A DNA stretch of 28,144 bases from Candidatus Saccharimonadales bacterium (lineage in GTDB: Archaea; Micrarchaeota; Micrarchaeia; Micrarchaeales; CABMGC01). Shown one piece after another: positions 2,598 to 28,144 of this stretch. The stretch covers positions 1 to 28,144 of the forward strand of contig DATJMH010000008.1 of assembly GCA_035508815.1 (NCBI GenBank), read 5' to 3'. The translations under genes and the position numbers were made by a program. A model generated the notes under the pieces. It did no database searches and had not been told where the DNA came from. It was given only the letters and a program-made list of their open reading frames with translations. Positions within the stretch are counted from its first letter, which is position 1. Each line of letters opens with the position of its first letter.

Positions 2598-2629
2598 CCT
2601 GATGTTCAATACACTATGGGCGTCCGTAT

Positions 2630-2645
2630 CCACCATCTATAGTGG
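2630..2645. promoter_or_regulatory. NrdR-box-like operator 1
   Basis: CCACCATCTATAGTGG resembles the consensus acaCwAtATaTwGtgt, has palindromic CCAC/GTGG ends and lies upstream of nrdA. Confidence 0.6.
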
Positions 2646-2661
2646 CTTTGGATGTCCAGGG

Positions 2662-2677
2662 ATACTACAGGTTGTAT
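2662..2677. promoter_or_regulatory. NrdR-box-like operator 2
   Basis: ATACTACAGGTTGTAT starts exactly 32 bp after box 1 and keeps the C4, A6, A8, T11 and G13 consensus positions. Confidence 0.55.
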
Positions 2678-2691
2678 ATGGGGTTGTTTTG

Positions 2692-5646
2692 ATGGCGTGG
2701 GAAAAATTCGAGAATGTGAAGAAGAGGGATGGCACTGTAGTTGAGTTCAAGCCTGAGAAGATAGCGGAGGCGATCAGGAAGGCGATACTTGCAACAAGGG
2801 GCAACACGGACAACGTTGACGTGGGCGCGCTCACCGAGCACGTCCTCAAGGGCATAGAGGTAAGGTACGCGGGCTACAAGACCCCGGACGTGGAGGGAAT
2901 ACAGAACCTCGTGGAGCGCACTCTCATGGAGTTCGGGCTTTTCGACGTTTCAAAGGCCTACATACTGTACAGGGAGAGGCACCGTGAGATAAGGGAGCAG
3001 AAGCAGAAGGACATAATACGCTACATAGAGGAGGGAAGGATACACGTCACGAAGAGGGACGGCTCCAGGGAGGTATTCAGCGAATCCAAGCTTAGGACGT
3101 TCATAGCAAGGGCCTGCAGGGGCTTCGAGGGCGTGGTCGACATAGACGGCCTGGTGAGGCAGTGCGAGCTGGGAATCTACGAGAACATAAAGACATCGGA
3201 GCTGGCAAAGCTGGCCATAATGTCATCAAAGGCCCTGATAGAGCAGGATCCAACCGCATTCGAGGCAATAACCACAAGGCTCTTCCTCTCATCTCTCTAC
3301 AAGGAGGCGCTGGCCTCTGGTTTCTCCAAGAACATACGCGAGGCATATGGAAGGTCATTCGCTGCCTCGATAAAGAAGGGAGTGGAGCAGGGCCTCCTGA
3401 CAAAGGAGCTCCTGGACTTTGACTTGGAGAAGCTCTCAAAGGTGCTGATATTCGACAGGGACCTCATGATGAACTCAAGGGGCATACAGACCCTTTATGA
3501 CAGGTACTTCGTCAGGGACAGGCGCACAGACCTGCCCACCGAGACGCCGCAGTTCTTCTGGATGCGTGTAGCCATGGGACTCTCGATAAACGAGAAGGAC
3601 AAGGAGTCACGCGCAATGCAGTTCTACGAGGTGCTCTCATCCATGAGGTTCGTGGCCTCAACCCCGACGCTCTTCCACTCCGGGACCATGCACCCGCAGC
3701 TCAGCTCATGCTACCTTACTACCGTCGAGGACGACCTCTCTCACATCTTCAAGGCCATAGGCGACAACGCCCAGCTCTCGAAGTGGTCCGGAGGGCTAGG
3801 CAACGACTGGACCAACATAAGGGCAACCGGATCGCTGATAAAGAGCACCAACGTGGAAAGCCAGGGAGTGATACCCTTCCTGAAGATAGCCAACGACACC
3901 ACAGTCGCGATAAACAGGAGCGGAAAGAGGAGGGGCGCAACGTGCGCCTACCTGGAGACCTGGCACATGGACATAGAGGACTTCCTCGACCTGAGGAAGA
4001 CCACCGGCGACGAAAGGCGAAGAACGCACGACATGGACACGGCCAACTGGATACCCGACCTCTTCATGAAGCGCGTCGTCAACGACGAGGACTGGACGCT
4101 CTTCTCCCCTGAGGAGGTTCCGGAGCTGCACCAGACATACGGCAGGAAGTTCGAGGAGAAGTACATTGAGTACGAGAAGAGGGCGTCGGAAGGCAAGATA
4201 GCGCTCTTCAAGACAGTCAAGGCGCAGCAGCTCTGGAGGAAGATGATCACCTCCCTGTTCGAGACAGGCCACCCTTGGATGGTCTTCAAGGACCCTGCAA
4301 ACGTGAGGTCCCCGCAGGACCATGTCGGAGTGGTCCACAGCTCGAACCTCTGCACCGAGATAACGCTGAACACCTCGAAGGACGAGACCGCGGTCTGCAA
4401 CCTAGGCTCGATAAACCTGGCAAACCACATAAAGGAGGGCAGGCTCGACTCCGGCCTGCTCAAGGAGACCGTATACACCGCAATGCGCATGCTGGACAAC
4501 GTCATAGACATCAACTACTACCCGACCGAAGAGGCCAAGACCTCCAACATGAGGCACAGGCCGGTGGGCCTGGGCATAATGGGCTACCAGGATGCACTCT
4601 ACATGCTGGGAAGGAACTTCGACTCGGACGCCGGGCTGGAGTTCGCCGACGAGAGCATGGAGATCATATCCTACTATGCGATACTGGCATCCACCGAGCT
4701 CGCCAGGGAGCGCGGGACCTACGAGACCTACAAGGGATCGAAGTGGGACCGCGGCATACTGCCGCTCGACTCCCTTGACCTGCTCGAGCAGGAAAGGGGA
4801 ATCAAGATAGAGGTCCCCAGGACCGCAAAGATGGACTGGTCAGTAGCCAGGAGGGAGGTGAAGCAGCACGGGATGAGGAACTCAAACACCATGGCCATAG
4901 CCCCCACAGCGACAATATCCAACATTGCAGGATGCTACCCTTCCATAGAGCCCATCTACAAGAACATCTACGTCAAGTCCAACATGAGCGGCGAATTCAC
5001 AGTGGTCAACAAGTTCCTGGTCGAGGACCTCAAGGCCAACGAGCTCTGGAACAAGACGCTTCTCGAGAAGATAAAGGAGAACGACGGAAACCTCCAGCAC
5101 ATAGAGTCGCTGCCGAAGAAGCTCAAGGACAAGTACAAGGAGGCCTTCGACATAGACCCGGAGTTCATGATAGCGGCTGCCGCAAGGAGGGCCAAGTGGA
5201 TAGACCAGAGCCAGTCGCTCAACATCTTCAGCGCGACAAGCTCCGGAAAGAGGCTCTCCGACATCTACATATACGCCTGGAAGATGGGCCTCAAGTCCAC
5301 ATACTACCTGAGGACCATTGCGGCATCGACAATAGAGAAGAGCACCCTCGAGATAACGAACAGGACAGCCGCGATAAACATAGAGACGGCGGGCACCGAC
5401 AACAGCGGGAGGGCGTACGCCTCCAAGCCAGAAAGCGCCGCGGAATCGAGGATAATGGACGTAAGCGAGAGCGGAATGGCCCAGGTCCAGGTCGAGCGCC
5501 AGGAGCCCGTGACGGTCCAAGTAGAGGATGCGATAATCGAGGCAGCCATGCAGGAGCCCGTCGCGCCACAGGCATTCGAGGCCAAGGTCTGCAGGATAGA
5601 CGGCCACAGCATGTCGGACGAGGAGAACTGCGAGGCCTGCCAGTAA
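2692..5646 (+). CDS. nrdA: Class I ribonucleoside-diphosphate reductase alpha subunit with two N-terminal ATP cones
   Basis: Two ATP-cone starts (VKKRDG and VTKRDG), QLSSCYL, SSNLCTEI, TAVCNLGS, KSTYYLR and C-terminal CEACQ. Start placed at ATG 2692 (MAWEKF), just before cone 1; the track start at 2602 would read through the regulatory region. Confidence 0.96.
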   Translation: MAWEKFENVKKRDGTVVEFKPEKIAEAIRKAILATRGNTDNVDVGALTEHVLKGIEVRYAGYKTPDVEGIQNLVERTLMEFGLFDVSKAYILYRERHREIREQKQKDIIRYIEEGRIHVTKRDGSREVFSESKLRTFIARACRGFEGVVDIDGLVRQCELGIYENIKTSELAKLAIMSSKALIEQDPTAFEAITTRLFLSSLYKEALASGFSKNIREAYGRSFAASIKKGVEQGLLTKELLDFDLEKLSKVLIFDRDLMMNSRGIQTLYDRYFVRDRRTDLPTETPQFFWMRVAMGLSINEKDKESRAMQFYEVLSSMRFVASTPTLFHSGTMHPQLSSCYLTTVEDDLSHIFKAIGDNAQLSKWSGGLGNDWTNIRATGSLIKSTNVESQGVIPFLKIANDTTVAINRSGKRRGATCAYLETWHMDIEDFLDLRKTTGDERRRTHDMDTANWIPDLFMKRVVNDEDWTLFSPEEVPELHQTYGRKFEEKYIEYEKRASEGKIALFKTVKAQQLWRKMITSLFETGHPWMVFKDPANVRSPQDHVGVVHSSNLCTEITLNTSKDETAVCNLGSINLANHIKEGRLDSGLLKETVYTAMRMLDNVIDINYYPTEEAKTSNMRHRPVGLGIMGYQDALYMLGRNFDSDAGLEFADESMEIISYYAILASTELARERGTYETYKGSKWDRGILPLDSLDLLEQERGIKIEVPRTAKMDWSVARREVKQHGMRNSNTMAIAPTATISNIAGCYPSIEPIYKNIYVKSNMSGEFTVVNKFLVEDLKANELWNKTLLEKIKENDGNLQHIESLPKKLKDKYKEAFDIDPEFMIAAAARRAKWIDQSQSLNIFSATSSGKRLSDIYIYAWKMGLKSTYYLRTIAASTIEKSTLEITNRTAAINIETAGTDNSGRAYASKPESAAESRIMDVSESGMAQVQVERQEPVTVQVEDAIIEAAMQEPVAPQAFEAKVCRIDGHSMSDEENCEACQ

Positions 5647-5653
5647 ATCAGAA

Positions 5654-5660
5654 AGGAGGT
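5654..5660 (+). promoter_or_regulatory. Ribosome-binding site for nrdB
   Basis: AGGAGGT 4 nt before ATG 5665. Confidence 0.8.
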
Positions 5661-5664
5661 AAAC

Positions 5665-6663
5665 ATGAAGAAGATACTAAACGCGTCAGAGGTCGACCCG
5701 AACAAGATACTCCCCATAAAGTACGAGTGGGCCAGGACGCACTACAAGGCCGGCGTGGCAAACAACTGGGTGCCGGAAGAGATACCCATGCAGCAGGACA
5801 TAGAGCTCTGGAAGAAGAAGGGCGGCCTGAGCGACGACGAGCGGAGGATGATCCTCTGGAACCTCGGATTCTTCTCGACGGCGGAAAGCCTGACCGCGAA
5901 CAACATCATACTCTCGATATACAGGCACATAACCAACCCCGAGTCGAGGCAGTACCTGCTCAGGCAGGCGTACGAGGAGGCCGTCCACACGGAGATGTTC
6001 CTTTACTGCTGCGATTCCCTGGGGCTGGACCCTGACGAGATCTACAACATGTACAACACCATCGCAAGCATAAAGGCGAAGGACGACTACGTCGTGGACC
6101 TCACAAAATCCATACTTGACCCGAACTTCACAACCACCGGCGTCGAGAACATACAGAGGTTCGTCTACGACCTCGTCGGATACTACATAATCATGGAGGG
6201 GATCTTCTTCTACGCCGGTTTCGTCATGATGCTCTCGATGCTCAGGAGCAACAGGATGGTCGGGGTGGGCGAGCAGTTCCAGTACGTGCTCAGGGACGAG
6301 ACCGTGCATCTGGCATTCGGAGCCGACCTGATCAACACCATAGTGGAGGAGAACCCCGAGATATGGACGGAGAAGTTCAAGAAGGAGATAACCGACTCGA
6401 TACTCAGGGGGGTCGACCTGGAGGTCCTGTACGCGAAGGACGCCCTCCCGAGGGGGATACTCGGCCTGAACGCCGACATGATCAAGGACTACATGCAGTA
6501 CATAGCGGACAGGAGGCTGGAGAGGATAGGCCTCAAGAAGGTATTCAGCTCTGAGAACCCGTTCCCGTGGATGAGCGAAATCATAGATTTGAGGAAGGAG
6601 AAGAACTTCTTCGAGACAAGGGTAACGGAGTACAAGAACAGGGGAGAGCTGAGCTGGGACTAG
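5665..6663 (+). CDS. nrdB: Ribonucleotide reductase beta subunit, class Ic (R2c, Mn/Fe)-type signature
   Basis: Ligands E74 (TAES), E105/H108 (EEAVH), E178 (EGIFFY), E212/H215 (DETVH). F112 sits at the His+4 radical-Tyr position. C-terminus EKNFFETRVTEY. Confidence 0.95.
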   Translation: MKKILNASEVDPNKILPIKYEWARTHYKAGVANNWVPEEIPMQQDIELWKKKGGLSDDERRMILWNLGFFSTAESLTANNIILSIYRHITNPESRQYLLRQAYEEAVHTEMFLYCCDSLGLDPDEIYNMYNTIASIKAKDDYVVDLTKSILDPNFTTTGVENIQRFVYDLVGYYIIMEGIFFYAGFVMMLSMLRSNRMVGVGEQFQYVLRDETVHLAFGADLINTIVEENPEIWTEKFKKEITDSILRGVDLEVLYAKDALPRGILGLNADMIKDYMQYIADRRLERIGLKKVFSSENPFPWMSEIIDLRKEKNFFETRVTEYKNRGELSWD

Positions 6664-7228: not shown

Positions 7229-8377
7229 ATGGGAACAGCTACCAGAAGAGACCTTTATCTAGAGAAGCCGGTTTTGCTAGCAGGACAGCCTAAAAGGACC
7301 ATAGCCGAATATGCAAGCCAGAACGGAATACTCGTACCACGAATATTTGATTCTTTAATTGAGGCAAAACGTTTTGGACTACCTATAATTGCCAGAAGCG
7401 AGCATACCCAAGACTATAATGGTTCATCAGATCTATTCGCAAGTAAGGTGTTAAGAGAAGGCAATAGATTTAGCGGACTTAACGAGTCAGAACTGAAAAA
7501 AGCATTAGATAAGTATAATTTCCACACAGAGAAGCACTGCGATTTGCTCGGAATACACTTTGAGGAGTTCAAGAAGCAATTTTCATATTCTTTCTGGGAA
7601 TTTATAGAAGGTTTCCAAATAAGAGTTGTGGCTGACTCTGCAATCAAATCGCGTTATCATATAACTGCTTATAGGAGAAGGCAGGGAGATGGCGAGCCGA
7701 TTCATGATTATTCCTTCTTTGAAAATGGCAACGTAACAAACTTAACATCCTCTCAGATGCCTAATGAACTTCGAGCTAATCTAGCAAGTCTGATAGATAT
7801 TTATGATTCTATAAGAAATCTTGATAAGTTTGACCCTAATCATTGCCCCATAATGGAGTTTGTTACTACACCAGAAGGTAAACATTACTTTTTGCAATAC
7901 CACAGGTCTCGTGACTTCAGCCAGGCATCTTTCCTATTGGACAGAAAACCGATAAAAGACGAGGCAAGAGCCTTATTTGTCAGAGGAGCAACTCCTCCTG
8001 AAGGCATCACCTGCAAGGTAACTGTAGCTTATGGATGGATAGGCGGCACTGCAAAGTGTAGGCTTCCGAAAGTTGAACAGGGTGCTTTCGATTTTCATAG
8101 TACCGCAGCCTACTCGGAGATTATGGTTCGGAGGAGGCGCCTGCAAATAACAGATTCTGACGACTTAAAATCAGAAATGGAAGAATTTGTTGAGGGCCAC
8201 GGAAGGTATTCAAGATTAATTAAACCAGAAATTTCTGTAATTCTAGACGCTGGGAGGATCTTATCTAAAACTGAGAAGACCAAGCTGGAAAGGCAGGCGG
8301 AAAAGGAAAGCCATGATGTTTATATAAATGTTCATCTGACTTCAGATGGGAGCATCGCCTATCTTAGACGTGCATAA
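7229..8377 (+). CDS. Hypothetical protein, possible divergent ATP-grasp/PEP-synthase N-terminal-like fold; AT-rich
   Basis: 382-aa ORF. LVPRIF...PIIARSE...DYNGSSDLFAS and MEFVTTPEGKHYFLQ resemble PPDK_N-type ATP-grasp motifs. Codon usage is visibly more A/T-ending than its neighbours. Confidence 0.55.
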   Translation: MGTATRRDLYLEKPVLLAGQPKRTIAEYASQNGILVPRIFDSLIEAKRFGLPIIARSEHTQDYNGSSDLFASKVLREGNRFSGLNESELKKALDKYNFHTEKHCDLLGIHFEEFKKQFSYSFWEFIEGFQIRVVADSAIKSRYHITAYRRRQGDGEPIHDYSFFENGNVTNLTSSQMPNELRANLASLIDIYDSIRNLDKFDPNHCPIMEFVTTPEGKHYFLQYHRSRDFSQASFLLDRKPIKDEARALFVRGATPPEGITCKVTVAYGWIGGTAKCRLPKVEQGAFDFHSTAAYSEIMVRRRRLQITDSDDLKSEMEEFVEGHGRYSRLIKPEISVILDAGRILSKTEKTKLERQAEKESHDVYINVHLTSDGSIAYLRRA

Positions 8378-18193: not shown

Positions 18194-20023
18194 TCAGCCC
18201 TCCTCGTTCTCCGCGGAGGCGGCTCCCTTGCCCTTGTTCTTCTTCGCTTCAAGAGAGGACTCGTCATCTGCCTTGCCCTCGTTCTTCCCGGTTTCTGCAG
18301 GCCTTCCCCTCTCAACCACCACTGGGTGGTGCTTTATCTCATGAACCTCGGCATGGCCTCCATGGCTTCCGGCGGCCTTCTGCATGGCAGCGTCTTCTGC
18401 GACATCGCTCGCGAACTTCTCGCTGAACTTCTTCGGGTCATAGGAATTAGCAATCACTTTCAGACGAGCATTCTCTGCCGCATTATACGACTTGAAGACT
18501 CCGCCTCGCCGCTTCCTCTGCATGTCAAAGTTCGGGATGTAGTCGGGCTTGTAACTTTTGTCAAGACTTGCCCTGAGCTGCTGGAACCTTGCCACTGCGG
18601 CCTCTCCGGTGGCGATTGCGGCGGCAGGCACCGTGGCACCTACAAGTGCCGCGTTGTCCTTCGCAGTTGAGACGCTCTCAGCCAGGCTCGGTTTTTCGGG
18701 ATAAAGTCTGTCGTAGGTCTGATTGAATATGGCCTTGTGCTGGTCATCGCTTATCTCGCCCTTCATCAGCTTTATGTTCTCAACTTCCAGCTTCTTGACG
18801 CCCTCGTCCAGCTCCTTCTTCCTCTTCTCCATGCCCTCCACTCTCGCATTGATGACGTCGTTCTCGTGGCTGAGCTCCCTAGTCTGCTTTGCGGCCTCGG
18901 TGGGGCTTAGTTTTTCGTCCTTAGCGATCTTGCTTATCTTCTCGTTGTTCTCCGCTATCGCACCCTTCTGCTTGGCTATTACCTTATTCAAGTGCTCCTC
19001 TTCCGCCTTGAATATCGTTTTCTTCAGCTTCGGAGGATTGGAATTCAGCTTGCTGAGGCCATAAACGCCCAGCGGCCCGAGTACCGGTACCCTCGGTCCG
19101 GTGAAGGCGGCGCCCTCCTTGGTGGCCGTCCATGCATCTCCAAGGGTCTTGAACTTCCACTGTTTTACCTGGGCCATCTTCTGGTTCTTTACCTGCTCCT
19201 CCTTGCTCAACACCCTCACTCTGGGAACGCCGGAAGAGTCATCCGTCTTAACCCCGGGATTCCTGACGGGTATCTTTGTAATCCTTGTGAACAATACGGG
19301 CCTGGGGGCTGCGCCCTTGACAGGCACACGCTTGAAGCCTATCGGTATCTTTCCCAGGACTGCGACCACTCCTGCCGCTGCACTCCTCGTCCCCTTTCCT
19401 GCTATCACCTTAGGCGCCATCATCGCAGCTCCTGCCGCCCCGGTGCCTGCCGCCATCTTAACAGGTCCTCCGGTTTCAGTTGCCGCCCCCCTGCTCCTCT
19501 TTCCTGTTATTACCTTGGGCGCCATCCCTGCCACCCCGCCCACGGCAGCCGTGGTGCCTGCTGCCATCTTAACCCATCCTCCGCTTCCGGCAGCCATCCT
19601 GCCCTTCTTCCCTCCTATCACCTTCGGGCTCATGCCAGGCCCTCTGCCTCCCGTCGGGTTGGGCATCGCCGCAAGCATGGCAAGCCGGGATCCCTCCCTG
19701 AGGTTATTCCTGGCCACCTTCTTCTGCATCCCGGTAGGCCCTCCGCCTCTCCTGCGCCTGAAGAATATTCCCCTCTGGCTCTCTATTCCAGCTCCTTTCG
19801 GTGCGTCGAGATAGGTCCTCAGCGGGAACCCGGATTTCGCCATGCCGCCCCTGGAGCCGCCTCCAACCGAGCCCATGCCCCCAAGGAGCGAGGCGACGCC
19901 GAAGAGGTTGAACAGGCTGAACCCCCTCGTGGCCCCGGCAGCAGCCGCTATCAGCACTATGATCACCATTATCGGCACTAGCGCGTTAAGGTTCCCTACT
20001 GACAGGATCGGAGGTAAAAACAA
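18194..20023 (-). CDS. Membrane-anchored basic Gly/Ala/Lys-rich protein with tandem repeats and a coiled coil
   Basis: TTG start, N-terminal hydrophobic segment(s), low-complexity basic region, heptad-like stretch (HLNKVIAKQ...KLEVENIKLMK) and a charged tail. Confidence 0.75.
   Translation of the reverse strand: MFLPPILSVGNLNALVPIMVIIVLIAAAAGATRGFSLFNLFGVASLLGGMGSVGGGSRGGMAKSGFPLRTYLDAPKGAGIESQRGIFFRRRRGGGPTGMQKKVARNNLREGSRLAMLAAMPNPTGGRGPGMSPKVIGGKKGRMAAGSGGWVKMAAGTTAAVGGVAGMAPKVITGKRSRGAATETGGPVKMAAGTGAAGAAMMAPKVIAGKGTRSAAAGVVAVLGKIPIGFKRVPVKGAAPRPVLFTRITKIPVRNPGVKTDDSSGVPRVRVLSKEEQVKNQKMAQVKQWKFKTLGDAWTATKEGAAFTGPRVPVLGPLGVYGLSKLNSNPPKLKKTIFKAEEEHLNKVIAKQKGAIAENNEKISKIAKDEKLSPTEAAKQTRELSHENDVINARVEGMEKRKKELDEGVKKLEVENIKLMKGEISDDQHKAIFNQTYDRLYPEKPSLAESVSTAKDNAALVGATVPAAAIATGEAAVARFQQLRASLDKSYKPDYIPNFDMQRKRRGGVFKSYNAAENARLKVIANSYDPKKFSEKFASDVAEDAAMQKAAGSHGGHAEVHEIKHHPVVVERGRPAETGKNEGKADDESSLEAKKNKGKGAASAENEEG
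19383..19640 (-). repeat. Intragenic tandem repeat, about 3 copies of 105-111 bp (35-37 aa)
   Basis: PKVI codons recur at + positions 19404, 19509 and 19617. GGTGCCTGC(C/T)GCCATCTTAAC occurs at 19442 and 19553. Confidence 0.85.
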
Positions 20024-20973: not shown

Positions 20974-21333
20974 ATGGCAAAATCGGCTAAAATGGACAAA
21001 ATCTGGGGGGTTCTGGGCTTTGAGTTCGTAGGAAGCATCTTCTTCCTCTCGGTTGCCCTCACCGCCGGGCTGACATGGACAGGTTCCTGGCAGTGGTGGC
21101 AGACGATACTCTTCGGAGTGGGCCTCGTAGGCTCGGTCTCGCTCTTCTTCATGTGCTTCGGCAATTTCGGGCTGATGAAGAGGATATCCATGACCATAAT
21201 GAAGACCGCCATGGTGACCGCAGTGGCCCTGGTGGCGATCTCGGCAGGCGACTGGCCCCTCATAGGCCTCACGCTTGTAGGCTTCATACTCACGTTCATG
21301 GGAGCTTCCTGGGGAATGCCAAAGGAATGGTAA
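20974..21333 (+). CDS. Small 4-TM membrane protein (paralog A)
   Basis: Start placed at ATG 20974 (MAKSAK). Four hydrophobic helices; aligns by eye with 21534..21917. Confidence 0.75.
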   Translation: MAKSAKMDKIWGVLGFEFVGSIFFLSVALTAGLTWTGSWQWWQTILFGVGLVGSVSLFFMCFGNFGLMKRISMTIMKTAMVTAVALVAISAGDWPLIGLTLVGFILTFMGASWGMPKEW

Positions 21334-21533: not shown

Positions 21534-21917
21534 ATGGCAGCAGCAAAGAAGAGTTCGGCGGGAATGGCAGGAGGAATCCTGGTCTTCCTGGGTTCGCTAA
21601 TATACCTGTATGTGGTTTTCACATGGTATAACAGCGGCGCAGCTTTGGGCGCTTGGGTAAGCGCGACGCAGTTCTTGGGTCCATTCGTGGTCGCAGTGGC
21701 CATGGTGAGCGCAATAACTCTGTTCTTCATGGGCATAGGCACCATGTCAGGCAAGGCAACCGGAGAGATGAAGTCCATGATGCAGATGGTGCTCTGGAGG
21801 TTCGTAATGCTCGCCGGAATAACCGAGATAATCGTAACGGGCGGTGGTGCTTGGTTCTACGCGGCAATACTGGGATTCGTCCTGACCTACATCGGAGCAA
21901 TGGCTTCCGCAATGTAA
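21534..21917 (+). CDS. Small 4-TM membrane protein (paralog B)
   Basis: Four hydrophobic helices, Met/Gly-rich, tandem TAA TAG stops. Confidence 0.78.
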   Translation: MAAAKKSSAGMAGGILVFLGSLIYLYVVFTWYNSGAALGAWVSATQFLGPFVVAVAMVSAITLFFMGIGTMSGKATGEMKSMMQMVLWRFVMLAGITEIIVTGGGAWFYAAILGFVLTYIGAMASAM

Positions 21918-22481: not shown

Positions 22482-22615
22482 ACACCTACAAATACCAACT
22501 AACTTCTTCTTTTGAAACAAGACCCGTACAAGCGGCTCTTCTGAATCTGTGTTATCGGACCAGTAACAAAATATATATACCTAATTACTCCACTAGCTAG
22601 CATAGGAAGGATTTG

Positions 22616-25600
22616 ATGGGTAAACTCGGATTCTTTATCTTTCTTATCTCCCTGTTTAGTTCCCTCAGCATAATACAAACTGCTCAAGCAGCCCAAGTGC
22701 CAAACGGAGTCCCACCCACATGTCAGTCATTATCATGTGGTAGCATACTTGGAAAATTTTCTCAAGGCATGCAGACAGGCCTGCTGTTTTCTGCCCCGCA
22801 GATCGGATTTACTGTTTCCGAAGACACTCTTTTGGCAGCGGTGGCCCAGGCAAAGGCAGCTGGCTACGCAGCAAATCCGTTGGTCGTTGCGAGTGGATAT
22901 ACCGGGGACCAATGGATACAAGTTATCGTATTGTGCGACCAGGCTAGTAACTGTTATGCAGGTTTTAATGCCTGGTCTGTTTCTGCTACTGGAAGTATAA
23001 ACCAATATTATTACGCCCAATCCCAATTGCCTATTGTGCCAGGTGCACAGTTTTCTGGGACTGTAAGCATAACTGACGGAACCCTAAACGCTTACGTGAC
23101 ATGCGATATCTGTCTGAATTTTCAACCGATAGTTATGCCTTCCATTACCGACCCGAACCCAATAAACCCTAACCTTTTTTCCACTCAGGGAGGCGCTCTA
23201 TTACCCAGTGGGGACATGGGCGAAACCTGGACCGACACCTATGAAGCCCCTATTGATTATAGCTTTATATGCAATCCATGCGCAAGCTCAGTAATTCCTT
23301 ACAACACTGCTTATTCCCTAACCTATACTTTAGGGGGGTATACAAGTACACTGCCTCAACTTAACATCGGAAGCCCAGTAGATTTGTCTACCGACACTCA
23401 ATTTACCTTCGGCGTGTCCTGCGCATCTTCCAGTGGCTGTTTCTCTCCCCCTTCACTAACTCTAAACTCGGGCTCCGTTACAATAGGCAGCCTGGCCACT
23501 CAAGACCAACTCCCCATCAATCCCGGAGTCACGCAGGTCACTATAAATCCTACCCCAATGTCCTTCATCTCGTCTAATCCATTATACCTTGACCTGCAGA
23601 ACCAGGCAGGGCAGCTCTGGGACGTGGCTGACCATCCTCTATCTGGCCTGGATTCCGGCTCAGGCGGGATTACGGTCATTGATCCCACGGTGTTGCCACC
23701 AGGAAGCCAGGTAGACATACAGTCCTTCTCGGAAACCGATACGGGGCAGCTGGGAGGATACGCAATTCTTACTAATCCTGGAGGCACAGAAAGCGCATAT
23801 CTTGACATTAACCAACTGGGGCCATGCACAGATGCAGGATGTTCATACTCGTTATCGCTGCCGCTGCCTTACGCGGCAGATACGGGCCTGCCTGGCGAAG
23901 TTGTGGCTACCATAAGTACAACCGTTCCGCTAGACACAGGAAGCAGCATGTCCATCAGTTCAGCCACGGGAGGCGGCACTGGTTCATACGTGGCCTACCT
24001 AGATTTGCAGCAATCCCCATACCTTGGGTCCTTCGGATCCCCCATCGACTGCAGCTCCTTCTGCTACTTAAGCACGCCAATACAATACCCTGGATCCTTC
24101 GCCCCCTCCATCGACTGCGGCCCCGATTGTAGCCTGTCATTGTCCTCAAATCCGCCAATCCCGCAGGACTCCGGAGTCCTGGGCCTCGACGAACAGCAGG
24201 CCCAGCAACTGCAGTTCATCGCAGCCGGATATTCACTTGGACTTACATGCGCCTTCAGCTCAACCACCTCCTGCCTTGAGTCTCTACCTTCAGCGGCATT
24301 GGCAATCCCAAGCGGCCTTGCCGCCTTCCAGGTAAGTGATTACCTGCAGAATCAAGAAACCCAGCTGTTCCAGAGCCTGTTCGGCAGTTCCGCCCAGGAC
24401 ATCTCAGAGGCCATCTCCTATATCCCATTCCTCAGTCTCGGGATAAGCATACTCGAAGGCAGCACTAACGTCCAGATCCCCCTCTCTCCGATACAATTCA
24501 CCACCACCTACACTGCGTCGCCTCCAAACGTGACAGTGACCAACAGCACGCCGTACAACTCCTCGCCAACCGGTCAGGTATTCAACGGCAACTACGGGGA
24601 GGCGCCGAATTACCTAACATGTCCAACTAACGCATCGTCTCTCAATCCAACCACCGACCTATACTTCTATGCGAACAAGAACACCGGGATAGCAGGGGAC
24701 AAATGCCTTACCGCTAACACAACCTTCTCGAGCACGCTCTACGGCCTTACCACTAGCGTCTCTGTCCCCCCGGTAGACGAATTCTTCCACATACTCTCAA
24801 GCGTGGGGAGCGGAGGCTACATCACCGGAGTCAGCGAACTCCAGATAGCCAATCCAGGTGCCGTCTCGGAGCAGGACCTCGGCTACTCGCCGAGCGTCGA
24901 CGGCGTCCTCTCGAACGGCTTCAACACCAGCTCCTACATATTCGACAAGGTGCCCTCGTTCGCACAGCACGGGATCTGGTCTTGGAACCTGGTCCTGCCT
25001 GACTTCTCGGCTGCATCTGTGCCGGCGAGCAGCAACCTCTTCTTCACGATGCAGACTATAACGGAGCCTGGAACCGGAGGAATATGCCTCTACACCGGCC
25101 CGTATTTCGAGCAGACCACACTAGACAGCGTAAATACAAACTACATACCCTTCACTGAGATCGAGCACAACTCAAGTTCAACAAATTACAACTCATCCAG
25201 CAGATCGACCTTCGACACCGCCGTCTATCCCTTCCTTCTGTACAGCTACGTACTGACCCAAGACAACGCCGGTCCGCTGAGCAACCCCAACCTCACGGGA
25301 ATGTCTGAGGACATCTACAGCCCGTGGAACTACTACACGCCTGCGAATTCTGAGGACCAGTTCCCCATAGACCTACCCAGCCTACTCTTCGCTAGATCCA
25401 CGACAAAAGGAAACCAGGTAATCACCATACCTGAGAACGGCACCGCGCCTGAGAACTCCGCAATCCAGACTCCAGTAGCAGCATACAGAACTTCACCTTC
25501 GATAAACCTTTCCATACCATCCACCCAAATATATTCAAACTATTCGTTCCTGACTTCCAACGCATTCTACCTTACCCTCCTAGACCCCATTGCAGCCCCA

Positions 25601-28144
25601 GGCATAGTGACTCAGGGTTCATCCTCGCTCATTGTTGATGATCCTGCAATCGGAGGCACCCCTCCCTACAAATATCAATGGTCCGTCGAGTCTCCGGGTT
25701 CCAGTTCCTATTCCAATATAACATCTGCAAACTCCATCACATACGACTTCCAGACGGCCTGGAATTCGACAATAGGGACGTACAATTTCAGGCTGACGGC
25801 GAATGATTCAACCATGGTGATCGACCCGATCACAGGTGCGCTGGTGCTCCAGCCGCTCAATATAACAAAGGACGTCTCCGTGACAGTCGTGTCATCGGGA
25901 TTCTCCATAACGGATCCAATATCAATAACTGCCACGGCGAACAATTACATCTACGTTCTATACGATAATTCCGGGAACTACACCATAGGCGTAATAAGGC
26001 TCTACCCTCACGGCTCGTATCCTGCATCAGTACCGCTGCCATCCACCAACGTGACCTGCGGCGGGACCGGCTCATGGTCAGGCTCCTCATGCTCAGGGCC
26101 ATGGGATGCTGAGTGGCAGGCCTACTGGGATCAGGTCATAGAGCAGCAGAATAACACCGCGTATCTGATGGGTACCATAAACATACCAAGTGTATTTTAT
26201 GCCGGAGGCAACCCCATTCCGTTCGTGCCCTACAACATCACCTCGGACAACAGCGGGGACATCTTCATCACTGGAGAAACTGTGGGCAGGCAGCTGCTTC
26301 TTGCCAAGGTGCTGGATATCCTGACTCCCTCAGGAACCCTATGCTATGAATCAGCAGGATGCGATCGACTGTCATGGAGCCCGCCTATCAGTGTTGTAGG
26401 GAACCTGACTGAGATAGCTGCTGCTCCTGTTTCTGGAGACATCTATCTCACCGGACCCGGGTCTCAGGGCATATACGTCTTCAGCGCAAACAACTTCACG
26501 CTCCTCAGGACGCTGCCGCTCGTCTTCAGCAACGACACCGCACTTGCCGGCAGCGCTTCGCCGCTGTCGCAGACAGCCAATTCCACGCCGCTCTCGGGCG
26601 ACCTCAACATAACGAAATGGCTCCGGCAGACCGGCCCGTTCGGAATAAACGGCCTCCAGACAGCCTCCGGCCCCGGAAATTCCGACAAGGAAGCCTACCA
26701 CCATCCGCTCTCGATCGCAGATGTAAACGGAGACATATACCTTCTGGACGACTGGTCCGGCAGCGCGGGTGGCAACGGCTTCGACTTCCTCACCCTAAGG
26801 GTGATGGACGCAAACGGCACCGAGGTGCCACTCAATCCATCAATTCTGAATGACGTATCCAATCTGACCGCCCGCCAGCTGGCGCAGCTCAACTGGGAGA
26901 CCCAGCAAGGCCTCCAGTACGAGTTCCCTCCATACGGCATAATCCTGTCGGGAGAGGTCAACGGCGTAAGCTTCTGCTCCTCCTCAACATGCGATTACCA
27001 CAGGGAAATAAACCAGACATACTATCCAATAGGTCCGATGCTTAACCAGTCCGGATGCGACGCCATAGGGAGCATATGCCCTGTGGTTGGCTTCTCCACA
27101 TATCCAGATGGAAGGGTCACAATGCTCATGCCGCCCCAAAGCACGGGATTCGGGTACGGCGAACTACTTGTCCTCAACCTCAACCCGGAGAACTACACCC
27201 AGTTGCTCAGCGGCCTGCCTCCATACATTTGTTATGTGCCTTCCAATATCGACTCTGGCATATGTGGCCACTACAACATCAGCCAGATAGCTCCTCCGAT
27301 ATACGGCGTAGACGATACCTTCAAGTACCTGGAAAACCTCGGCTCGCAGAACTACCTCAGCTTCAGCAACCAGTACTTCGCAGAGTTCTCCGCGGTGAAC
27401 AGCAGCAGGGCCACGAATCAGGCATGCTTCAACCAGATATCCAACTTTTCGAATCCAAGCGCCTGCTATGTCGGAGGCAATTCCACATTCCCTGCGGCAT
27501 TTAACGTAACCAAACTGCTGAACAGCTCGCTTCTCGGAAACGGTTCACAGCCGCGAAGCGGCAACCTGACCCTAAACTACACGGTCCTGGAAAACGTCAC
27601 ATCAACCCTGGAAAGCCACCTAAGCCTCGTGACAAACCAGTCCCTCCTTACATACCTCAACGCCTTTCTGGGCCAGGCCACAGCGTTCGGAAACGAGACG
27701 CTTGCATTCAACCAGTCCTATTCCAACCTTGCGCCGGCGTCCAACCTCACCACAATACTGGATTCCCAACTGAGCCGGATGACAGAACAATTCAAGATTC
27801 TCAACAACGAATCGGTGCTTCTCAACAACCAAACGGGTACGAATGCCAGCGTAACCTCGCCGCTCGCCGAGCTCCAGGCGCTCGAGGCAGAGAACAAAAG
27901 CTACTTGCTCAATGAGACCAAGGCATACCTGAACCAGATTTATATCTATATAGCGGAGAAGAACATCGAGGCCCAGGAGTACACCATGCTTACCGGAATA
28001 AGACTTTCCAACGGCTCCACGATAACCCCGCCAGTGACCGAGCTTACAAGCGAAATAACCGGCAACGCGTGGCTCTCCTACCAATACAGGTACGACACCT
28101 TCCAGTGGTGGGGCCCGTATATTCTAACGGGCGGAGAGGACACT
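22616..28144 (+). CDS. Giant secreted/surface protein, at least 1843 aa, truncated by the window end (absent from the ORF track)
   Basis: Translated by hand: no stop from ATG 22616 to 28144. RBS-like aggaagga upstream, signal peptide MGKLGFFIFLISLFSSLSIIQTAQA, Ig/PKD-like GGTPPYKYQW near 25650-25682, propeller-like blades from 25900 to 26760, and a helical segment near 27750-27970. Confidence 0.9.
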   Translation, partial: MGKLGFFIFLISLFSSLSIIQTAQAAQVPNGVPPTCQSLSCGSILGKFSQGMQTGLLFSAPQIGFTVSEDTLLAAVAQAKAAGYAANPLVVASGYTGDQWIQVIVLCDQASNCYAGFNAWSVSATGSINQYYYAQSQLPIVPGAQFSGTVSITDGTLNAYVTCDICLNFQPIVMPSITDPNPINPNLFSTQGGALLPSGDMGETWTDTYEAPIDYSFICNPCASSVIPYNTAYSLTYTLGGYTSTLPQLNIGSPVDLSTDTQFTFGVSCASSSGCFSPPSLTLNSGSVTIGSLATQDQLPINPGVTQVTINPTPMSFISSNPLYLDLQNQAGQLWDVADHPLSGLDSGSGGITVIDPTVLPPGSQVDIQSFSETDTGQLGGYAILTNPGGTESAYLDINQLGPCTDAGCSYSLSLPLPYAADTGLPGEVVATISTTVPLDTGSSMSISSATGGGTGSYVAYLDLQQSPYLGSFGSPIDCSSFCYLSTPIQYPGSFAPSIDCGPDCSLSLSSNPPIPQDSGVLGLDEQQAQQLQFIAAGYSLGLTCAFSSTTSCLESLPSAALAIPSGLAAFQVSDYLQNQETQLFQSLFGSSAQDISEAISYIPFLSLGISILEGSTNVQIPLSPIQFTTTYTASPPNVTVTNSTPYNSSPTGQVFNGNYGEAPNYLTCPTNASSLNPTTDLYFYANKNTGIAGDKCLTANTTFSSTLYGLTTSVSVPPVDEFFHILSSVGSGGYITGVSELQIANPGAVSEQDLGYSPSVDGVLSNGFNTSSYIFDKVPSFAQHGIWSWNLVLPDFSAASVPASSNLFFTMQTITEPGTGGICLYTGPYFEQTTLDSVNTNYIPFTEIEHNSSSTNYNSSSRSTFDTAVYPFLLYSYVLTQDNAGPLSNPNLTGMSEDIYSPWNYYTPANSEDQFPIDLPSLLFARSTTKGNQVITIPENGTAPENSAIQTPVAAYRTSPSINLSIPSTQIYSNYSFLTSNAFYLTLLDPIAAPGIVTQGSSSLIVDDPAIGGTPPYKYQWSVESPGSSSYSNITSANSITYDFQTAWNSTIGTYNFRLTANDSTMVIDPITGALVLQPLNITKDVSVTVVSSGFSITDPISITATANNYIYVLYDNSGNYTIGVIRLYPHGSYPASVPLPSTNVTCGGTGSWSGSSCSGPWDAEWQAYWDQVIEQQNNTAYLMGTINIPSVFYAGGNPIPFVPYNITSDNSGDIFITGETVGRQLLLAKVLDILTPSGTLCYESAGCDRLSWSPPISVVGNLTEIAAAPVSGDIYLTGPGSQGIYVFSANNFTLLRTLPLVFSNDTALAGSASPLSQTANSTPLSGDLNITKWLRQTGPFGINGLQTASGPGNSDKEAYHHPLSIADVNGDIYLLDDWSGSAGGNGFDFLTLRVMDANGTEVPLNPSILNDVSNLTARQLAQLNWETQQGLQYEFPPYGIILSGEVNGVSFCSSSTCDYHREINQTYYPIGPMLNQSGCDAIGSICPVVGFSTYPDGRVTMLMPPQSTGFGYGELLVLNLNPENYTQLLSGLPPYICYVPSNIDSGICGHYNISQIAPPIYGVDDTFKYLENLGSQNYLSFSNQYFAEFSAVNSSRATNQACFNQISNFSNPSACYVGGNSTFPAAFNVTKLLNSSLLGNGSQPRSGNLTLNYTVLENVTSTLESHLSLVTNQSLLTYLNAFLGQATAFGNETLAFNQSYSNLAPASNLTTILDSQLSRMTEQFKILNNESVLLNNQTGTNASVTSPLAELQALEAENKSYLLNETKAYLNQIYIYIAEKNIEAQEYTMLTGIRLSNGSTITPPVTELTSEITGNAWLSYQYRYDTFQWWGPYILTGGEDT

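Follow-up and report, generated by a model that had tools for sequence, protein, structure and literature searches.

Here we describe a giant gene at positions 22616-28144 (+) of contig DATJMH010000008.1 in assembly GCA_035508815.1, a metagenome-assembled genome (MAG) placed in the order Micrarchaeales of the archaeal phylum Micrarchaeota; the window referred to throughout is the whole contig as analysed, 28,144 nucleotides long. We establish the gene, the family to which it belongs, the architecture and conservation of that family, and its pairing with a second gene, located in the window at 18194-20023 (-). By sequence similarity the giant is a member of an unnamed Micrarchaeota family and not an orphan, and this family is, in our view, the best candidate for the protein with which these host-dependent archaea may touch their hosts. 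How Micrarchaeota and other DPANN archaea recognise and hold a host is an open question in the field, for which few candidates have been published, and those have been called strain-specific.

The gene is a single uninterrupted frame of 1,843 codons, starting at TTG 22613 or ATG 22616 and open through the last base, 28144, as an earlier reading of the window from its sequence (the preliminary description) had reported. Because the window is an entire contig (C8) of a MAG of 475 kb in 46 contigs that is 50% complete, the frame is ended by the contig edge and not by a stop codon; by homology it would represent the N-terminal ~77% of a protein of roughly 2,400 residues. No continuation of the gene and no paralog of it were found in the same MAG, and a search of public metagenome contigs with the last 50 bases as query returned no overlapping contig. 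Among public sequencing runs, one DNA run, from a wetland metagenome that may be the source, and no RNA run was listed. An A/T-rich TATA-like box (~22567-22579) and a Shine-Dalgarno-like GGAAGGA (~22604-22611) lie just 5' of the start codon. The features of the gene, with residue numbers (aa) of its product, are as follows.

22567-22611 (+): putative promoter and ribosome-binding region, read from the sequence
22616-22690 (+): signal peptide, aa 1-25, MGKLGFFIFLISLFSSLSIIQTAQA, with an A-x-A cleavage motif, from the translation
22691-24526 (+): variable head, aa 26-637; no N-x-S/T sequon, nine close Cys pairs, orphan, shifted codon usage
24203-24595 (+): linker, aa 530-660, overlapping the end of the head; local jackhmmer matches to the paralogs P0007 and P0008 (below) and to one short fragment only
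24596-25375 (+): core domain 1, aa ~661-920, blocks B0-B3; conserved in 19 of 19 aligned members
25373-27325 (+): predicted six-bladed beta-propeller with long loop inserts, aa ~920-1570; VIA-align and Foldseek on the model
25541-25855 (+): PKD/immunoglobulin (Ig)-like unit, aa ~976-1080, between blocks B3 and B4; sub-threshold match to Pfam PF22352
27536-28015 (+): sequon-dense, Cys-free, Pro/Gly-poor segment, aa ~1641-1800, from composition
28058-28144 (+): start of the conserved C-terminal module, ITGNAWLSYQYRYDTFQWWGP..., where the P0004/P0007 alignment reaches the last residues of the window

The signal peptide is predicted to be cleaved between MGKLGFFIFLISLFSSLSIIQTAQA and AQ. The protein contains 1.0% lysine and 1.0% arginine, 21.7% serine plus threonine, 6.9% asparagine, 7.1% proline and 8.5% glycine, together with 33 cysteines, mostly as close pairs, and 50 N-x-S/T sequons where ~26 would be expected, with none before residue 638. 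The signal peptide, the richness in Ser, Thr, Asn, Pro and Gly, the poverty in Lys and Arg and the density of sequons had each been claimed in the preliminary description and are borne out by these counts. The giant and every one of its relatives are very low in lysine plus arginine, a trait that fits the extracellular proteins of acidophilic organisms. Public gene calls are truncated at the N-terminus in all three family members checked, giving 1,529 residues in place of at least 1,843 for the giant of the window, and, in a related genome, 2,097 in place of 2,607 (L002:8471-16294) and 1,948 in place of 2,407 (L004:8624-15847); what the short calls lose, 300-500 residues, comprises the signal peptide and the greater part of the head.

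A word-based search recovered only two homologs, both of them paralogs (P0007 and P0008) in the related genome GCA_964550485.1, with true frames of 2,607 and 2,407 codons, each starting with a signal peptide. They match aa ~530-1839 of the window's protein with 44-52% identity (BLASTP) and run ~540 residues past the alignment, to a transmembrane (TM) helix and a basic tail. With a profile built from the three proteins, 142 of the 401 genomes sampled from the phylum gave a match. Most of these belong to two families within the window's order, where 63 of 82 and 74 of 94 genomes respectively carry the giant's family (together 137 of 176, ~78%), and outside them four genomes matched, one from the third family in the order and three from different orders. 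At E<=1e-30, an exhaustive profile search yielded 195 cluster representatives, the longest of about 4,050 aa; the size range of the family is 1,600-4,000 residues. The giant itself scores 2341 bits against profile A1 and 2.4e-258 in the search of representatives, and profile and pairwise alignments place the conserved core blocks B0-B8, comprising domain 1 and the predicted propeller, at aa ~640-1640. Public records of the family read 'hypothetical protein' or, in one NCBI record, 'lytic transglycosylase domain-containing protein'. Searches of Pfam, NCBIfam and PDB sequences returned no match above cut-off for the giant of the window. It falls into no ordinary surface-layer (S-layer) or enzyme family; a match to such a family is what the preliminary description had named as counting against it. 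Both cultured systems, Ca. Micrarchaeum harzensis A_DKE (with Scheffleriplasma) and Ca. Mancarchaeum acidiphilum Mia14 (with Cuniculiplasma), belong to the order of the window and encode a giant, of 2,010 and 2,795 aa respectively, as well as its partner. In A_DKE the giant occupies 400,579-406,608 and the partner starts at 406,656; the supplementary tables published for A_DKE contain no genome-wide expression values for its giant.

Twenty full-length family genes were fetched for the comparison of architectures, making 22 complete relatives in all. Every one of the 22 has a signal peptide, 1.4-3.8% lysine plus arginine, and a C-terminal motif (N-Y-x-[WY]-x-P-N ... LS-x-G) with a TM helix and then a basic tail behind it. 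At ~560 aa, the C-terminal module, with its Cys-rich and beta-rich domain, is the best-conserved part of the family; the contig stops 29 residues into it, and the ~540 aa, TM helix and basic tail of the relatives lie beyond. An AlphaFold2 model of this domain had a predicted local distance difference test score (pLDDT) of 46 and was not used for fold assignment. We rejected the idea that the C-terminus of the giant is a shared sorting signal, as in archaeosortase substrates of the PGF-CTERM or a similar type, because the C-termini match no curated CTERM model and, in the five closed genomes, no protein other than the giant carries the module; no other open reading frame (ORF) with the C-terminal motif was found in the giant's own MAG. 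A dedicated sortase system with the giant as its single substrate could still exist. Separately, an exosortase/archaeosortase-family protein of ~520-540 aa is encoded in all four closed Micrarchaeales genomes tested (A_DKE, at L125:704-2323; Mia14; G043; G039), where it matches PF09721 above cut-off and carries the TIGR04178 signature, with no curated subtype.

The core of the family consists of twelve conserved blocks, and the shortest member, at 1,638 aa, is essentially this core alone. Variation is concentrated in two places, the N-terminal head and a site of insertion that separates blocks B3 and B4. For aa 640-1640, an AlphaFold2 model computed from a 20-sequence alignment is confident only in its beta-rich part, with pLDDT 70-88 across most of aa ~1055-1570; values fall below 50 for aa 640-1055, and to 26-48 in core domain 1, for which the ESM Atlas gave no lead. 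A PDB sequence search with the core and C-terminal profiles gave nothing below E 0.3. By structural comparison with VIA-align, the confident part resembles six-bladed propellers of the YWTD, NHL and TolB types, with Z scores of 19.6-18.2 over ~255 residues at a root-mean-square deviation of 3.3-3.4 Å (19.6 for nidogen, 1npe; 19.4 for LRP4; 19.2 for ApoER2 and for the NHL domain of Brat; 18.4 for TolB). Foldseek agrees, with E 1e-5 to YncE, LRP2, NHL and the YVTN propeller 1l0q. The propeller-like blades with inserts of the preliminary description are thereby confirmed and extended to a six-bladed propeller. No YVTN, NHL or YWTD repeat signature was found in the giant with Pfam, and the likeness is one of predicted fold, with no membership in these sequence families implied. 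Propellers of the YWTD/LDL-receptor class and of the NHL class (nidogen 1NPE, LRP4, ApoER2, Brat) are extracellular ligand-binding platforms in large receptors; that of the giant differs from them in sequence (9-14% identity), in its long inserts and in the domain embedded within it.

The structural match covers model residues 281-931 and starts ahead of the PKD-like unit; it follows that the propeller holds the variable modules of the B3/B4 site within it, beyond its first strands. In the window this module is the PKD-like unit, whose Ig-like fold is likely from its motif GGTPPYKYQW and from the homologous units that recur in tandem in eight other family members; the structural model is poor in this stretch. 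The Ig/PKD-like unit proposed earlier is weakly supported, by motif and by recurrence, and its Pfam match falls below the cut-off. In relatives the same site holds enzymes, namely SLT_3 together with NlpC/P60 (L030), SLT (L032) or NlpC/P60 (L036). Among 172 family proteins a lysozyme-like segment occurs in 32 (~19%), NlpC/P60 in 10 (~6%) and SLT in three, and neither Pfam nor local searches seeded with the relatives' domains found an SLT/lysozyme-like or NlpC/P60 domain in the giant of the window. Beyond the propeller, aa ~1641-1800 contain 7% proline plus glycine, 44% helix-forming residues, no cysteine and 13 sequons, and two close relatives carry extra LQTLE...NN..AM repeats in the matching segment. 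This stretch is probably a helical stalk, as the earlier reading of a helical segment would have it, with composition as the sole basis.

The head is of a different character. Across aa 26-663, three of 28 asparagines lie in sequons where 13 would be expected at the rate of the core (P 4e-5), and the same depletion is seen in the heads of the two closest paralogs and of a more distant member (L040). No homolog of the head was found among the 172 family proteins or in 5.8 billion proteins, either with the head as a separate query or within a search with the full sequence; it gave no Pfam match and no usable ESM Atlas match, and contains no internal repeats. GC content at third codon positions is 0.51 in the head, 0.64-0.74 in the rest of the gene and 0.80-0.86 in the ribonucleotide reductase (RNR) genes of the window. 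Head lengths in the family range from 84 to 1,336 aa, and most heads are unannotated; among those with annotation, InlB-type B-repeats occur in one and an Ig domain in another, and two have helical low-complexity matches to DUF445 and GerPC. A naked, recently exchanged head on a glycan-covered stalk is what might be expected of a recognition surface.

The chief new finding concerns the neighbourhood of the giant, in which the following genes are relevant.

18194-20023 (-): conserved partner, 609 aa; N-terminal TM segment, then a basic (16% lysine plus arginine), Gly/Ala-rich, coiled-coil region
20974-21333 (+): small protein with four TM segments, paralog 1, between partner and giant; homologs beside giants
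21534-21917 (+): small protein with four TM segments, paralog 2; same cluster of flanking ORFs

When ORFs flanking the giants were compared, seven loci, from both families, proved to have a homolog of the ORF at 18194-20023 as the first gene downstream of the giant. Each of the five closed genomes has exactly one match to this partner, always on the strand of the giant and downstream of it: as the next gene in A_DKE, G101 and G043, 2 kb away in G039 and 14.5 kb away in Mia14. A profile of the partner's N-terminal TM segment matched 162 of the order's 201 genomes, in almost every case once. Pairing was counted by comparing, by hand, the coordinates from the giant and partner profile searches. 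Giant and partner share a contig in 76 genomes, and in 64 of these the partner lies at most 0.6 kb downstream on the same strand; it is 1.4-15 kb downstream in nine, and the three that deviate are G076, G320 and the window. A further 30 genomes carry the two genes on separate contigs. That the 609-aa gene is the giant's conserved partner is new here.

In the window the partner lies 2.6 kb upstream of the giant and divergent from it, instead of directly downstream. The preliminary description had placed the giant ~2.6 kb from a membrane cluster in divergent orientation; distance and orientation hold, and what changes is the reading of the cluster, since its first gene, the one nearest to the giant, is the partner and goes with the giant in most genomes. 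Two complete pairs on separate contigs of G069 (G069:C37:4217-5431 and G069:C32:2059-4036) indicate that the pair can duplicate as a unit. Lysine plus arginine make up 13-19% of the partner across relatives, as against ~2% in exported proteins of these organisms, and because it is so much more basic than these, the bulk of the partner is presumably cytoplasmic. Two partners end in a J-domain with an intact HPD motif, that of Mia14 (L126:14528-16966; PF00226, E 1.4e-17) and, with a weak match, that of G180 (L040:631-1614); a degenerate trace is found in A_DKE and none in the window's partner. These two J-domains support a cytoplasmic location, and the combination of a membrane-anchored J-protein with a neighbouring giant at the surface is reminiscent of co-chaperones of the DjlA type. 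Directly before the TM helix, the C-termini of giants and the N-termini of partners share a similar short motif, L-S-x-G-x-I, on what is presumed to be the outer face, and could be a shared contact or recognition element. Homologs of the small four-TM proteins, which have no Pfam or other family match, are neighbours of the giant in G004, in G076 and, with both copies, in G320; whether they belong to the giant-partner system is uncertain.

Taken together, these observations lead us to read the giant as a glycosylated projection of the cell surface that is anchored in the membrane, makes contact with a host cell or with matrix and is coupled to its partner, a reading to which we assign a probability of roughly 55%. 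The adhesin or scaffold character is suggested by the signal peptide, the Lys/Arg-poor and sequon-rich ectodomain, the anchor present in 22 relatives, the propeller and Ig-like modules and the sugar-free tip; a role in contact is suggested by the variable heads (84-1,336 aa) and the exchangeable SLT, SLT_3, NlpC/P60, PKD and InlB-type modules. The exported giant surface protein of the preliminary description, a candidate adhesin or scaffold, fits everything found here, with its function still a matter of inference. The protein would be exported by Sec, heavily N-glycosylated, stapled by disulfides and adapted to acid. From the cytoplasm outward, it would consist of a short basic tail, the TM helix, the Cys-rich beta domain of ~540 aa and a glycosylated helical stalk, then of the six-bladed propeller, into which the Ig-like unit is inserted, and of core domain 1, with the head, variable, free of sugar and recently swapped, at the tip. 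Such a long projection could present the naked head beyond the S-layer, where it would bind the host cell or its matrix, and the propeller with its interchangeable inserts, Ig-like here and glycan- or peptide-cleaving enzymes in relatives, may serve as the working platform. The giant would probably be coupled to its basic partner in the membrane or the cytoplasm, and the two may be in physical contact.

Several points weigh against this interpretation. The near-universal, mostly single-copy presence of the family and its fixed partner would also suit a structural role in the envelope. Enzymatic or other activity in core domain 1 or in the C-terminal domain is possible, as pLDDT is below 50 for both in the models. 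The match of the inserted unit to the K319L-like PKD family PF22352 (aa 1019-1066) reaches E 0.02 and 15.3 bits against a cut-off of 27. Finally, the anchor lies beyond the end of the contig, so that anchoring of the window's copy by a C-terminal TM helix is assumed from its relatives.

Giant surface proteins of this kind have precedents. The beta-propeller/PKD surface proteins of Mia14 are, like the giant, huge, secreted and from Micrarchaeota, and were proposed to act in cell-cell interaction with a wall-less host (PMC5498576). They were treated as strain-specific and laterally acquired (PMC5498576), whereas the core of the giant is conserved across the order and comes with a fixed partner; the likeness is drawn from the description, as the published locus tags could not be mapped onto the 2,795-aa family member of Mia14. 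Secreted 'lytic transglycosylases' have been recorded in three genomes (PMC5864196). A surface-layer fragment of Methanosarcina mazei (1L0Q) also combines a beta-propeller with a PKD domain in an archaeal surface protein and matches the giant's propeller with Z 15.2 over 250 residues (Foldseek E 9e-5); its propeller, of the YVTN type, has seven blades and precedes the PKD domain, whereas that of the giant would be six-bladed with the Ig-like unit inside. The SPEARE proteins of Nanohaloarchaeota are likewise giant secreted proteins of a DPANN episymbiont and are implicated in host attachment (10.1101/2023.02.24.529834); they combine protease, adhesion and restriction-endonuclease domains, none of them found in the giant. 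What is already known, then, is the existence of giant beta-propeller/PKD surface proteins in Mia14 with a proposed role in host interaction (PMC5498576); what is new is that the core is order-wide, that the propeller contains a site for insertions, that the head is an orphan and free of sugar, that there is a conserved partner, and that a link to a neighbouring gene array is specific to the genus. One giant surface protein combines an order-wide core, a defined swap site for adhesive or lytic modules, a sugar-free variable tip and a strictly co-located partner, presumably on the cytoplasmic side, and since the pair is encoded in both cultured systems, A_DKE and Mia14, the hypothesis is directly testable.

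Among the alternatives, the one that survives best, and which we nevertheless consider unlikely, is a structural stalk or pillar of the envelope, comparable to SlaB, that holds or spaces a PF05123-type S-layer over a pseudoperiplasm of 20-25 nm. The presence of the family, usually in one copy, in ~78% of the genomes sampled from the two families, the C-terminal TM anchor below a long glycosylated ectodomain, and a fixed partner gene suggestive of a housekeeping complex would all suit such a role, as would the S-layer protein of A_DKE, SLP_Mh (Micr_00292), which is without a clear anchor and may depend on another protein bound to the membrane (10.1101/2021.04.28.441871). Hypervariable, partly orphan heads and swappable enzyme or Ig inserts are, however, unexpected in a lattice anchor; some genomes (GCA_964550485.1 and G069) have two divergent copies; the family was not found in 39 of 176 genomes, many of them incomplete; and 1,600-4,000 aa far exceeds the size of known stalks. 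The giant is most likely not the S-layer lattice protein itself, of the PF05123 type. SLP_Mh, which is PF05123-like, resembles the giant as a secreted, glycosylated envelope protein, of an abundant type, from the same organisms (10.1101/2021.04.28.441871), and A_DKE carries this 101-kDa protein in addition to a separate, TM-anchored family member of 2,010 aa. No match to PF05123 was found in the giant at E<=1, but the same Pfam model also misses the S-layer protein in the A_DKE genome, so that this domain search is weak by itself; searches of genomes with PF05123 are uninformative, because none matched, not even that of A_DKE with its known S-layer protein.

An extension of the contact reading, which we regard as a rather doubtful step, is that giant and partner form an order-wide transmembrane coupling device with the logic of an integrin and its adaptor, in which the swappable, sugar-free head would bind or sense the host and the partner would relay this on the cytoplasmic side; the conjugation or Ced-like membrane array that adjoins the partner in the genus of the window would be wired directly to the device. 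In such a device the J-domain of some partners could recruit Hsp70.

This array, a run of six paralogs that the preliminary description took for a putative channel with which the giant might work in host attachment, also underlies a more doubtful proposal, in which the giant is the surface receptor or docking arm of a neighbouring putative conjugation or Ced-like machine and, in relatives, also an envelope cutter resembling VirB1 or CwlT. The array comes immediately after the partner, with the same orientation, in the window and in G320, G377 and G403, and the giant lies 2.6-8 kb from the array in the window and in the related genome's L002 and directly after it in G320. Its relatives carry SLT/lysozyme-like and NlpC/P60 domains, a pair seen in conjugative cell-wall hydrolases. 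Set against this, homologs of the array are separated from the giant and its partner by more than 240 kb in five of five closed genomes of two families, the giant of the window has no hydrolase domain, and the known hosts, Thermoplasmatales, have no murein wall (PMC5498576). The neighbourhood of giant and partner includes the array in this genus alone, in three arrangements: that of the window; that of G320, with partner, array and giant all co-directional; and that of L002, with the giant 8 kb from the array's end and adjoining a transposase. Because of the distances in the closed genomes, an association of giant and array elsewhere is largely lacking at the level of the order, as the preliminary description had stipulated for its own refutation, and it recurs within the window's genus; joint action of the two is accordingly weakly supported, and the genus-specific, non-conserved association is suggestive of co-function. 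The transposase, of the DDE type (L002:21567-22523), sits between the RNR genes and the array, beside the relocated giant, and is a plausible cause of the rearrangements in this genus.

Least probable, in our estimate, is an extracellular enzyme scaffold that remodels the cell's own envelope or scavenges host glycans or peptides, with the propeller as a catalytic or substrate-binding platform: the lysozyme-like, NlpC/P60 and SLT segments of ~19%, ~6% and three of the family proteins, the many hydrolases and lyases among the six-bladed structural matches and the name of the single NCBI record speak for it, but most members, that of the window included, have no recognisable catalytic domain, and the enzyme matches are no better than those to receptor propellers.

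Further observations concern the rest of the window and the MAG. An ORF of 382 aa without a Pfam match, at 7229-8377 (+) between a tRNA-editing gene and the array, has a GC content of 39%, where the remainder of the window has 52-59%, except for 47% at 22-23 kb; this stretch is possibly foreign DNA. The class I RNR genes at 2602-6663 (+) have few relatives in Micrarchaeota MAGs (83%, 69% and 58% identity), and their other nearest relatives are mainly bacterial, at 49-58% identity, from Patescibacteria, Bdellovibrionota, Planctomycetota and others, which suggests an RNR of bacterial type in this archaeon. The same MAG encodes four Lys/Arg-poor paralogs (C13:1728-2723, C29:8997-9950, C33:11981-12922 and C38:8238-9062) that share an N-terminus like that of archaeal type IV pilins, QSAMEYLMTYGWAILIIAV, and a common C-terminal motif, NANDYSGNLNNG...SSWTSGYSAP, and that by these features form a pilin-like surface family.

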